NCBI GenBank assembly: GCA_951406725.2
Contig: OX597834.1
Span: 5,332,001-5,396,000 of the forward strand
From: Octopus vulgaris
Lineage: Eukaryota
DNA: 64,000 bases
Direction of reading: 5' to 3'
In this document: positions 3,366 to 62,904 of the stretch, in pieces
How the letters are laid out: every line of letters starts with the position of its first letter
Numbering within the stretch: the first letter of the stretch is position 1
Program-made: the position numbers and the translations under genes
Notes under the pieces: generated by a model
Databases searched by the model: none
What the model saw: the letters and a program-made list of their open reading frames with translations, nothing else
Told to the model about the DNA's origin: nothing

Positions 3366-3447
3366 CTTTCGACATATGTTTCGAAGACAACATGGTATTA
3401 TTCCAAAGGAATAAACGGTGTAAACTGAAATCTTCTCATCAGGAAAG
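3366..3447 (-). ncRNA. Type I hammerhead ribozyme, canonical core (family HH-A), in a Penelope-like/retrozyme-like repeat of about 3226-3470
   Basis: Minus strand reads CTTTC-CTGATGA-GAAGA..(ttattcc-ttt-ggaataa)..TCTTC-GAA-ACATATGT-C-GAAAG; stems I, II and III all pair. Confidence 0.85.
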
Positions 3448-3734
3448 AAAGAGAGCCTCTCTCAAGAACAAGACATTATAACAATTACGATGACTGCCTA
3501 AATGATAAACAGAACGTTATTAAGTATTTTTAAAAAACCGTTAGTAGATTTGAAGGCAAAGGCAGATACTAGAAAGAGAAGGGTTAAAGAAATAATAATA
3601 TATATATATGGAGAGAGATGTATCTTTTATCTTTTACTTATTTCAGTCACTAGAGTACAGCCATGCTGGTTGTAAAGCAGCAGTGGGGGACAATCACAGG
3701 CATAAAGGCACACAAGCATAGATATCATCAACTT

Positions 3735-4070
3735 TATGGATAGTGTCTCTCGGGATGTTGGTGAGGGATCCTTGTTGATTGTGAGCAATGAACTTGGTCT
3801 TATTAAGTTTAACGAATCGTCCACCATTATGTGCAGCTAATCATAGACTGTGAAACAATAGGATGGCATTTGATATTGTGTCAGAGGGCAAGGTTAAATC
3901 ATCTGCTTGGTCTACATCACTTCTTGTTTGAGCTGGATGACCAATAGATCTTATTTTCACAAGTGTGAAATGGAAGCCGGCTAGTTTGTAAAGTGATGTT
4001 CTAAGGACATAATCCAGAGTGATCCTGAAGAGGAAAGGTACCAGTGTGCCCCCACTGGAGTACTCTAGTT
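3735..4070 (-). pseudogene. Degenerate RTE-clade LINE reverse transcriptase fragment
   Basis: ORF track GGTLVPFLFRITLDYVLRTS...DVDQADDLTL resembles the QGDTLAPFLF and YADD RT motifs. Confidence 0.75.
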
Positions 4071-4081
4071 TTCTTGCCAAA

Positions 4082-4428
4082 GAAACTTGTTACGAGCAGT
4101 CTTAAACATTTCTTGGAGAATTCATCCTACCTAGAAACAACTATAAGGAGATCTCCTGCCTGTTTCCCCCAGTATAAGGGAAAGGCACTTGTGCTTAGTG
4201 AGACATTGCTGGAGAGCTAAAACAAAAGCTGACCAACTGCTATGGATGCCAAAGCATGGCTGTACATGAGCTGGTCATCCAAATACGACATATGTAGATA
4301 ACTGACCAGGAATATTATATCATAATCCCTGAAGATCTATGTCAACTAATGCAGCATGAAGATGGATGGTATGTGCAGGTTAAAAATGTCTGAGCAAGCT
4401 TGACCCGATGATGACGACGACGACGACG
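4082..4428 (+). pseudogene. Degenerate RTE-clade LINE C-terminus and (GAT/GAC)n tail
   Basis: Plus strand LLRAVLNISWRIHPT*KQL*GDLLP...HCWRAK...LLWMPKHG, ending in gatgatgacgacg. Confidence 0.7.
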
Positions 4429-4544
4429 ACACACAAATACATATACACACACACAAACACTTACACGCATCATTTGATTCATGAAAGCATGGAAAATTGA
4501 TAATGACAATGGTGATGATGGTGATACTGATGATATATGCAATA

Positions 4545-59934: not shown

Positions 59935-61082
59935 TGGATGCAGGTTTAAGATGGCATCTTTGCAACCATTTGTTTTCGGGTTCAGTCCCACTGGGTAGTA
60001 GTACCTAAAGCATACGTCTTCTACTACAGCCCTTGGTTGGTTAATCCCTCCGGGTGAATATGGTACGCCGAAACTATGTAGAAATCCGTTGTGTATATAT
60101 ATATATATATATATATATAGAGAGAGAGAGAGAGAGATCGTTAGCCACTACACACATTTTTTCTCTCCTTGTTTCTCTCCTTGTTTTTTCTGTGTCACTT
60201 TCTGTAGAAGAGCGTAGGCTCGAAACATAAAAGACTTTTTCTATTCCTGAGCGTTATACTAATACATCTGTTTGTTTTGTACACCACCTGTCTTGTCTTC
60301 GTCTTTTGTTTTTTTTGTAAACTCTCGCTATATATATATATATAAGCTTACATCGATTCACCTGTGGTGTTGTTTTGCATTTATAATAAAAATGATATAT
60401 ACCAATTATGAAAATAGTAAAAAAAATATACAGTACATTTCTCTCTCTACTCCGCAGATATTAACCAATCGCAGCGAGTTTTGGAACGTAACACCTGCGA
60501 TAGTCGAGGGATTACTGTGTATGTATATATATATATACTGGAAGGTTTGGAGATGATGTACAGGTATTTTATATTAGAAGAAATGAGGTACTCAGAAAAT
60601 CGGATGGTTTATATTTACAGATATTTATTTGTATATTACATTTTTTATACATCATATAACTTAGACCATGGATTAGCGCTTTCTCCCATTCTAGTCTATA
60701 TATATATATATATATATATATATATATATATATATATATATATCTTATACAAAATAGACCACTGTGTGTGAGTATTCGTTTTTTCACGGGAAAACGGCTG
60801 CGCAAATTGCTTCCATACATGGGATGCGTAAAGAAACTTAGCTATTTCTTGAAATACATAGCAATACCTACATTTATAGCAAAATTTTCTCAATTTTCTC
60901 AAGAGCTCCCAAATAATATTGTGCATCTCCAATTTACTCTTTTGTTCCTTTGACACCCAAAAATCTCCATGTGACCCCTGAGAGTCCACATAGACCCCAG
61001 TTGAGAACCATTGGACTAAACCTTTCAAGATGGTGCTCCAGCATGGACGCCGCTCCGTAACCGAAACAAGTAAAAAGTAAAG
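59935..61082 (+). mobile_element. Old SINE A head (59935-60090) and tail (61020-61082) separated by nested insertions in (TA)n
   Basis: cgggttcagtcccactg..gtcttctactacagcc and ggtgctccagcatgg..gaaacaagtaaaa. Confidence 0.55.
60136..60330 (+). mobile_element. HH-F-related element with a decayed minimal hammerhead (60198-60233)
   Basis: CTTT-CTGTAGA-A-GAGC-gtag-GCTC-GAA-ACAT-A-AAAG; downstream ttcctgagcg..taatac shared with HH-F. Confidence 0.55.
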
Positions 61083-61751
61083 ACATATTAATAATTAATA
61101 TTTTTTGCATTTTCTGGCAAATAAGGGAGACACATCCAAGCATGTTTTAGTTCATTCCGACCTCAATGAAGTTTAACCATCTCCTTAATTGTCAAATTAT
61201 ATATGAACAGATTCATTAAATTCCTTTACAAGAATGTAAATTTTATTGACATGGAAAATAAATTTCTACATGTCATCTCTAATAAGCTATAAAATCTATA
61301 ATTATTGAGAATTGTCAGTGGAAACTGAATGAATAAACGAAGCCGGCTGCACTTTAATCATCAAATCGAGTTGTTTGGATTCTAATTTTTAAAAAGCTTT
61401 CCAACCAAACAGAAGTCTTATAACTTAAATTCTATTTAATCTCCCATAATGGTATCACGACTTTTACTCTATTTTAAGAAAATCTTTAAAATAATTAGGT
61501 TATTTACCATTTTCTTTAAACATAATGACGTACAAAATAGATAAATCTCAAGAAAAAATAACTTTTCATTATCAGAAAGCTTTAAACGTAAAATGTATAA
61601 TCATAAAATTTTAAGCATTTTTTTTTCTTTCTCTGCAAATACAATTTTAAATGATTGCATTTATTCGTTTCTAAAAGTTCTTCATGCTCATAAATATTTC
61701 ACGTCCCTCTCTATTTTTCCCTTTATATATATATATATAGAGAGAGAGAGA

Positions 61752-62131
61752 GGAAGCACTCCGTCGGTTACGACGATGAGGGTTCCGGTTGATCCGAATC
61801 AACGGAACAGCCTGCTCGTGAAATTAACGTGTAAGTGGCTGAGCACTCCACAGACACGTGCACCCTTAACGTAGTTCTCGGGGGATATTCAGCGTGACAC
61901 AGAGAGTGACAAGGCCGGCCCCTTGAAATACAGGTACAACAGAAACAGGAAGTAAGAGTGAGAGAAAGCTGTGGTGAAAGAGTACAGCAGGGATCACCAC
62001 CATCCCCTGCCGGAGCCTCGTGGAGCTTTAGGTGTTTTCGCTCAATAAACACTCACAACGCCCGGTCTGGGAATCGAAACCGCAATCCTATGACCGCGAG
62101 TCCGCTGCCCTAACCACTGGGCCATTGTGGC
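61752..62131 (-). mobile_element. SINE B long-tail (OR1-like)
   Basis: Reverse complement of 22676-23065. Confidence 0.9.
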
Positions 62132-62142
62132 TATATATATAT

Positions 62143-62904
62143 AGTATGTACGAATGTTTATCTTTACATATCTATGAAAATGGCGGGCTTATTCGCAATG
62201 CATTTCGGTTACAAATTGTCTAGTCGGAATAAAAATTCAGTATTGAACTATTCCGGTGAAAAATATAAATTAACAATTGAGGATAAAATCTTTAAAAGAA
62301 ATTATCAGTAGTCAGCGTGAAAAACCTCGTAAGAGAAAAATCCGTAAATTCTTCCTCTTTGAAAATATTCATTTATATTATATTGAGGGTACTACTATTC
62401 GTAGATACCAACACGCTAAGAGGGACCAATGCGGTCAAAACTACTAAAAATAAACAAAATTTTACCGAATGCAAAATGGCGGGCTTAAATGGCGGGCTTT
62501 CATAGATATGTAAAGATAAACATTCGTACATGCTACGACGAATTCTACGGTTGGCTATCGAGCTTGTAATGTTATGTTTTCTCTTATATTTCTTGAGTTT
62601 GTTGCACTGATGAACATGAAATGCATATTCTGCATTAAATGCGAAATCACATGTGATATGTAACTGAATTCCTTTTTAAAATGATGTGTTTTGAAGTTTT
62701 GCATTCGGTAAAATTTTGTTTAATTTTAGTAGTTTTGACCGCATTGGTCCCTCTTAGCGTGTTGGTATCTACGAATAGTAGTACCCTCAATATAATATAA
62801 ATGAATATTTTCAAAGAGGAAGAATTTACGGATTTTTTCTCTTACGAGGTTTTTCACGCTGACTACTGATAATTTCTTTAAAGATCTTATCCTCAATTGT
62901 TAAT
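62143..62904 (+). mobile_element. Penelope-like pLTR structure with interleaved inverted repeats around a hammerhead
   Basis: 62269-62476 vs 62697-62904 inverted (about 3 differences); 62143-62179 vs 62498-62534 inverted; (TA)n flanks. Confidence 0.75.
62601..62664 (+). ncRNA. Type I hammerhead ribozyme (family HH-H)
   Basis: GTTGCA-CTGATGA-ACAT-ga-AATGCA-tattc-TGCATT-aa-ATGC-GAA-ATCACATGTGAT-A-TGTAAC; A.C at the base of stem II. Confidence 0.82.

Follow-up and report, generated by a model that had tools for sequence, protein, structure and literature searches.

Type I hammerhead ribozymes have been described in two kinds of retroelement. In Penelope-like elements (PLEs) they lie in the pseudo-long terminal repeats (pLTRs), and their palindromic helix III has led to a model in which two ribozymes act as a dimer (PMC4209133). 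The other kind are the non-LTR retrozymes, whose described hosts include a mussel (PMC7229834) and for which a derivation from pLTRs has been described (bioRxiv 10.64898/2026.07.22.740005). What the hammerhead does for a PLE has been called unclear (Craig et al., bioRxiv 10.1101/2021.04.23.441226; Frangieh et al., PMC11167929); in a PLE of the anole, copying initiates internally, the template is mainly uncut RNA, and ribozyme activity requires the protein (PMC11167929). In the giant squid, 235 matches to the Rfam hammerhead_1 model are on record (PMC6962438), and a repeat annotation of an octopus reports 31 recently active Penelope-like families, with ribozymes unmentioned in its main text (PMC13282606). 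The main text of the retrozyme study names no cephalopod (PMC7229834), and a literature search, which did not extend to the supplements of the two Cervera papers that possibly list more species, found no paper on octopus hammerheads. Here we analyze a 64,000-nt stretch of Octopus vulgaris DNA (contig OX597834.1, positions 5,332,001 to 5,396,000; G000:C21:5332001-5396000), referred to as the window, for which an original prediction had claimed about 15 hammerhead-like motifs, read as a population of non-autonomous ribozyme retroelements. The motifs are probably type I hammerheads in PLE terminal repeats and in short offshoots without an open reading frame (ORF), and the window copies are short insertions for which PLE target-primed reverse transcription into (TA)n is the likely source. 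The elements, assigned to ten repeat families (A–J), are as follows.

3223..3598, minus strand: family A stub, 3' pLTR of a Hydra-type PLE; the hammerhead 3450-3371 is canonical and intact, with C3 at 3442, helix III ACATATGT, and a predicted cut after 3371; another repeat has displaced the final ~110 bp of the element to 2686-2798.
9115..9657, minus strand: family B, tandem retrozyme lacking an ORF, with 1.26 units of its 432-bp monomer; hammerhead 9384-9317, minus strand, predicted cut 9317/9316, A-U at 10.1-11.1, helix III ACCTGCAGGT.
13569..13905, plus strand: family C stub, pLTR of a Hydra-type PLE; hammerhead 13733-13788, helix III ACTCGGAGT, U17.
28373..28554, minus strand: family D stub, 3' end of a Neptune-type PLE; decayed hammerhead 28471-28438, U3-A8 core, palindrome broken.
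29227..29547, plus strand: family E stub, likely 3' end of a Hydra-type PLE; hammerhead 29410-29492, U.U at 10.1-11.1, helix III ACAATTGT.
29566..29862, minus strand: older family A copy, one arm of an inverted pair; decayed hammerhead 29823-29742 (A13G).
29879..30039, plus strand: second, inverted arm of this A insertion; the hammerhead 29912-29991 is decayed (G5A, with a disrupted palindrome).
30292..30492, plus strand: family F short element, ~200 bp; decayed minimal hammerhead 30364-30394.
30557..30754, both strands: family G fold-back insertion; complete hammerheads 30690-30646 (minus) and 30687-30731 (plus), U.U at 10.1-11.1, helix III of 4 bp inside a 16-nt imperfect palindrome.
31721..32092, plus strand: family H stub, possibly a PLE 3' end; decayed hammerhead 31787-31873, GAAA box mutated, helix III of the family ACACGTGT.
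32256..32457, minus strand: family F short element; minimal hammerhead 32385-32355 in the family-majority form (U4C, extra A after A9, helix III ACGT, U17).
50452..50587, minus strand: family D stub; decayed hammerhead 50550-50517, deletion into the 5' core, helix III ACCGGT.
60132..60344, plus strand: short element of family I, a relative of the pLTR of a young Neptune-type PLE; the hammerhead 60198-60229 is minimal, has an A6U core, and in the window copy shows a decayed palindrome.
62142..62910, plus strand: family J, ORF-less tandem retrozyme with a 497-bp monomer, plus arm 62498-62910 and inverted arm 62142-62476; hammerhead 62602-62658, plus strand, predicted cut 62658/62659, A.C at 10.1-11.1, helix III ATCACATGTGAT.

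A pattern search located all 15 predicted motifs, at or beside the coordinates first given for them. They belong to families A (3366−, 29737−, 29911+), B (9311−), C (13733+), D (28435−, 50514−), E (29411+), F (30364+, 32351−), G (30623-30754, both strands), H (31787+), I (60198+), and J (62601+). The expectation of several families thus held, but their number is ten rather than eight or nine, and the flanks are not all unrelated, F and I being 76% identical over 55 nt. Eight window copies match their family motif (A at 3442, B, C, E, F at 32381, G twice, and J). The other seven are decayed, through substitutions in the core or palindrome or, at 50514, a 12-nt deletion, and are recognizable through homology only. 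The families were described from the whole assembly (2.8 Gb, 227 contigs, about 30 of them large), which was searched with eight motif regions, and 40 first-look candidates were scored per family. These candidates numbered 2770 for A, 2226 for C, 1633 for D, 1602 for E, 974 for J, 554 for B, and 215 for H. The search with the G motif gave no match and missed the window copy itself; family G was described from copies in other loci, and F, G, and I from loci fetched for other reasons. Majority sequences, built from 9–42 copies per family taken from best-match loci and hence biased toward the window copy, retain CUGANGA or a variant of it, GAAA, U-H, and all three helices. They follow the type I order (stem I, CUGANGA, stem II, GAAA, stem III, UH, stem I) with pairing helices, and their variants are U3-A8 (D), U4C (F), and A6U (I). 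Loss of the core in the family consensus sequences, which the original prediction had named as a refutation, was thus not observed.

The number of motifs in the genome was estimated with a type I structure descriptor at a threshold score of at least 8, which misses decayed copies and family G; an earlier, stricter descriptor had found only two motifs. The window gave 6 matches, its reversed sequence none, and none of 20 shuffles more than 1. A genome sample of 80 segments of 10 kb, taken at round coordinates on the 30 large contigs (800 kb), gave 39 matches spread over 25 of the segments, 7 of them from one tandem array. The corresponding controls gave 2 matches (reversed), 0–1 (five shuffles), and 2 and 0 (decoy boxes). 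Extrapolated, this amounts to 1.4×10^5 motifs genome-wide (bootstrap 0.8–2.0×10^5), decayed copies and family G not included, in line with the large population originally proposed. The window can be called dense only with a qualification: the same rate predicts 3.1 matches per 64 kb (P(≥6) = 0.10), so that the window is ordinary for its genome. By homology, the sample contains 16 copies of I, 10 of G, 9 of F, 6 of A, 3 of D, 2 each of C and E, and none of B, H, or J. Matches scoring at least 9 across all loci, some of which overlap, fall into 35 clusters, 18 of them found in two or more loci. Non-circularly permuted hammerheads gave no match in the window and one in the 800 kb, with a strict descriptor that may miss split-core forms.

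The Rfam hammerhead models gave no match at gathering score in the window and seven loci, including a canonical array (L159), and an E-value search of the window had no hammerhead among the matches listed (150 of 204). The Rfam models miss these hammerhead forms. The suggestion that the elements may be largely unannotated is borne out for the ribozymes as far as Rfam goes; PLEs are already annotated in an octopus genome (PMC13282606). The failure of Rfam to score any copy, the seven decayed window copies, and the frequent inversions in these elements are what could be cited for the view that the motifs are chance matches in AT-rich, repeat-rich DNA, or that the palindromes are by-products of fold-back copying. 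We regard this as extremely improbable: for the motif itself it is refuted by 39 matches versus 0–2 in the reversed, shuffled, and decoy-core controls, one core is common to unrelated families with differing pairing stems, and the motifs occupy the pLTR position known for PLE hammerheads. The length of the palindromes might just possibly be of purely mutational origin.

The assignment to PLEs comes from ORFs found elsewhere in the genome. Remains of reverse transcriptase (RT) and GIY-YIG sequences are present in loci of families C and D, and database homologues of these remains were used as queries against the genome. The Hydra-type query gave 68 scored matches, most with an open frame of 717 residues, and in all 30 loci fetched a C-related motif (about 80% identical to the window copy) lies on the ORF strand ~340 nt past the match, in many also upstream. 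The family C motif thus flanks intact 717-residue RT and GIY-YIG ORFs at both ends. The intact C-related ORF carries DKT and a CxCX5C linker, which are marks of the Hydra clade (Craig et al. 2021, bioRxiv 10.1101/2021.04.23.441226), as is its (TA)n targeting; A and E are placed by similarity to it. An ORF end beside an I copy gave 142 scored matches at 94–100% identity. Downstream of the ORF, the family I motif was parsed in 23 of 30 loci; a full family I pLTR–ORF–pLTR unit, with a frame of 1021 residues, is present at one locus. The ORFs upstream of families A and D are broken, and in most loci their distance from the motif is near-constant. For A, the Hydra-type ORF end was extrapolated, from a mid-ORF piece, to 220–236 nt upstream in four loci and to 780 nt in a fifth; for D, the Neptune-type ORF end lies about 400–480 nt upstream in six loci, and 208 and 689 nt in two more. 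Homologues of the D-linked ORF carry the GIY-YIG profile (Pfam PF01541); no family was returned when the PLE pieces and four database homologues were scanned against Pfam. A second young Neptune-type PLE (L249-L278; 64 scored matches, frames of ~775 residues, DKG, CX4CX2C, CCHH) has a U4C hammerhead with helix III AGTACT and belongs to a family absent from the window.

Families A, C, D, and I are therefore pLTR ends of Hydra- and Neptune-type PLEs; E is likely a PLE 3' end, and H possibly one. The link to Penelope elements that the original prediction made is thus confirmed, and its description of the families as non-autonomous elements fails for these four, which belong to PLE units. No PLE ORF was found within the 64-kb window, whose copies owe their lack of ORFs mostly to 5' truncation.

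Among the window families, only B (432 bp) and J (497 bp) fit the definition of an ORF-less tandem retrozyme. Head-to-tail periods of 428–434 bp were seen for B in five loci, four of which had been fetched for showing two matches, and of 495–499 bp for J in six distinct loci. Copies of both extend upstream into the previous unit, and copies within these two young families are 97–99% identical. Their monomers have a GC content of 38% and 31%, with no methionine-initiated ORF longer than 50 residues. A third retrozyme, outside the window, is the canonical type I array at L159:2250-4560 (G000:C1:20002250-20004560), which has a 359-bp monomer in five plus and two inverted units. The B, J, and L159 monomers fold as circles better than 40 shuffles (z −5.5, −3.7, and −4.3). 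In form, these three are what would be expected if most families were independent non-autonomous retrozymes amplified via small circular RNAs, and the same could be said of the 5' ends of family F and one I subfamily, which are fixed, in many cases at (TA)n, near −103 to −111 relative to the cut. As an account of most families, however, this is improbable. No tandem period was found in A, D, and E (39, 38, and 36 copies) or H (32), nor in C (45) apart from one 699-bp duplication, and the longest copies of these families run into PLE ORFs, which refutes it for A, C, D, and I. Family F and the I subfamily look like short fixed-length derivatives, similar to short master copies; a 3' piece of family I without a ribozyme also adjoins the H stub, at 32093-32185.

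Inversions in family G are often centered within about 30 nt of the ribozyme 5' core, which produces fold-backs, and some of these have complete hammerheads on both strands (window 30557-30754; L184, L144, L197, L198, L005). Several G elements (L357, L358, L359, L033, L311) carry at least 2.6 kb of degenerate TG/TA simple-repeat DNA common to the copies, and some apparent microsatellite DNA in this genome may thus have been spread by a retroelement.

When helix III was left free in the descriptor, it was a perfect palindrome in 24 of 30 matches (7 of them from one array) and one pair short of it in the other six, compared with one palindrome among eight control matches. All six palindromes named in the original prediction are present; further ones are those of C, 9 nt with a central unpaired base, and G, 16 nt and imperfect. 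Palindromes are kept across the 35 motif clusters. Predicted energies of the helix III hairpin within a monomer range from −1.4 to +6.0 kcal/mol, the hairpin being impossible for ACGT, whereas the intermolecular duplex is predicted at −1.7 to −17.7 kcal/mol, in agreement with the earlier suggestion that these helices suit dimers. Since loop bases are self-complementary in many unrelated families, the pattern is most simply read as selection for the pairing of two ribozymes. At L187:4793 and L178:913, J-like motifs have the different palindromes TCACGGTGA and TCGCCGGCGA, with the symmetry retained and the sequence changed.

The U3-A8 pair of D is already known in PLEs (PMC4209133), and U.U at 10.1-11.1, found in E and G, is known to be tolerated; at the same position J has A.C and B has A-U. 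What stands out as odd is the presence, in young intact families, of core changes that should weaken cutting. A6U occurs in 22 of 23 ORF-linked family I copies, in both pLTRs of the full-length copy, and in most of 36 aligned family I stubs, position 7 being free; U4C occurs in 31 of 32 motifs of the second intact Neptune-type family, 60 of 87 of the C cluster, and most F copies. A literature search found no paper reporting a natural A6U core. A6C and U4C lower activity in vitro (PMC3088659), the A6C rate being under 0.1 per min, and viroids with U4C stay infectious. As young families have evidently been amplified with A6U or U4C cores, strong cleavage would be either unneeded or rescued by a dimer or protein.

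These observations bring in a further explanation, namely that young intact PLE families spread with an altered catalytic core and retain the motif mainly as a device that pairs the RNA ends of an element or two transcripts, with cutting weakened, lost, or passed to the PLE protein. The near-fixation of A6U in family I, the presence of U4C in three families, the lowered in vitro activity just cited, and the self-complementary helix III kept in every family (reaching 12–16 nt) and across the clusters all agree with this, as does the finding that ribozyme mutants left insertion of the anole PLE in vitro unimpaired (PMC11167929). On the other hand, all families keep G5, the pairing of G8 with C3 (including the U3-A8 covariation), A9, the GAAA box, and U-H, which continued selection for catalysis would predict; the U4C viroids are infectious; and position 7 varies among I subfamilies while the rest of the core is fixed. 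We consider a role mainly in pairing possible but doubtful.

The insertion pattern fits target-primed copying by PLEs. In every family the 3' end is fixed, 38–245 nt past the predicted cut. It is followed by (TA)≥4 in 23/26 copies of A, 11/22 of B, 21/40 of D, 20/40 of E, 16/24 of F, 12/12 of G, 7/17 of H, 12/15 of I, and 17/32 of J (C was not added, because its two references overlap). These values, 41–100% per family compared with 6.9% of random windows, bear out the adjacency to (TA)n noted originally, and fixed 3' ends, often at (TA)n, are as target-primed insertion predicts. Except in F and one I subfamily, 5' ends are ragged and inversions frequent, and most copies read through the ribozyme, most loci having been chosen for whole motifs. 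We propose that the PLE protein would nick (TA)n and copying would begin at a fixed internal site downstream of the ribozyme, with reverse transcription passing through an uncut or re-ligated ribozyme. Most copies would stop early and end as single-hammerhead stubs. Through the palindromic helix III, two hammerheads could pair; cleavage would accordingly depend on the presence of both terminal repeats, or of two tandem units, and would release a unit-length, possibly circular, RNA. Single stubs would be mostly silent, and B and J would likely borrow the PLE protein.

Several points weigh against this PLE-based model. The link of E to a PLE comes from one well-placed locus (L108), and that of H from a C-terminal resemblance of ~20 residues in two loci with no profile match. 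The clade names Hydra and Neptune are putative, being assigned by motif, and Nematis has the same linker (bioRxiv 10.1101/2021.04.23.441226). No ORF partner for B, F, G, or J was found in 18–53 matches per family, about 2.6 kb upstream of G in three loci gave no profile match, and an F-related copy used as query gave 41 matches and no loci. At single loci, candidate ORF links for B (L216), F (L319), G (L197), H (L200), and J (L323) were discarded, the ORF being separated from the motif by microsatellites or other repeats. The A6U and U4C cores may cleave little or not at all. The palindromes of B, G, and J (10–16 nt) can form a 3–4-bp hairpin on their own, which makes their dependence on dimers uncertain. 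Among 5' junctions at −53..+36 from the cut, 7 of 30 fall within −3..+6 (p = 0.04) and none exactly at the cut; some cut RNA could thus be copied, but the interval was picked after seeing the data and the loci are biased toward whole motifs, which makes this a hint only. None of the listed sequencing runs that match B is on record as RNA. Contigs from four presumed RNA runs span most of B, including one 430-nt back joint that also occurs in tandem DNA; they were not used as evidence.

The window (GC content 36.6%) also contains 82 tandem-repeat rows, for the most part microsatellites, a frame of a Mariner-type transposase at 24070-25068 (PF01359), and a zf-RVT fragment of a long interspersed element at 53348-54079. 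A very abundant 300–400-bp interspersed repeat, unrelated to the hammerhead families, occupies about 15 sites (e.g., 19458-19837, 25280-25597, and 48636-49061); it may be of the short interspersed element type.

PLE hammerheads with a palindromic helix III, truncated single copies, and inverted pairs on the one hand, and retrozymes on the other, are both published kinds; for the window families, self-cleavage is predicted and circular RNA possible. As these kinds are already known, the value of the present set lies in its scale and as test material. With an estimated 10^5 motifs in the genome and no Rfam detection of any that were tested, there is an annotation gap, and intact young PLEs, stubs, and two young retrozyme families occur together in one genome. 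The roughly 35 motif variants, with palindromes of 4–16 nt and canonical, U4C, and A6U cores, are a natural series that makes the purpose of the PLE ribozyme directly testable.

Compared with the PLE hammerheads described in PMC4209133, those in the octopus share the pLTR position, the many families per genome, the predominance of single motifs from truncated elements, the inverted pairs 100–700 bp apart, the extra base after A9 (F, I), the U3-A8 variant (D), the palindromic 15.2-16.2 pairs, and the proposed action as dimers. They differ in palindromes that reach 8–16 nt, described there as small in metazoans, in lacking the G10.1-C11.1 pair in E and G (U.U), J (A.C), and B (A-U), and in the fixation of A6U and U4C in young families. 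Families A, C, and likely E share with Hydra-clade PLEs a unit of <3 kb, DKT, the CxCX5C linker, (TA)n insertion, and hammerheads, and D and I share with Neptune-type PLEs DKG, the CX2-5CxxC linker, and CCHH (bioRxiv 10.1101/2021.04.23.441226). The anole element Poseidon PAc belongs to another clade, its ORF starts inside the ribozyme, and it has been studied biochemically; it has in common with the octopus elements, as proposed here, a fixed internal RT start downstream of the ribozyme, an AT-rich target, and read-through of the uncut ribozyme (PMC11167929). Unlike known non-LTR retrozymes, B and J showed no long arrays. The 497-bp unit of J exceeds the 150–450 bp of PMC7229834 but lies within the 51–972 bp of bioRxiv 10.64898/2026.07.22.740005. 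With the retrozymes of both accounts, B and J share head-to-tail ORF-less units with one type I hammerhead each, their GC content, structured monomers, and the coexistence with PLEs.

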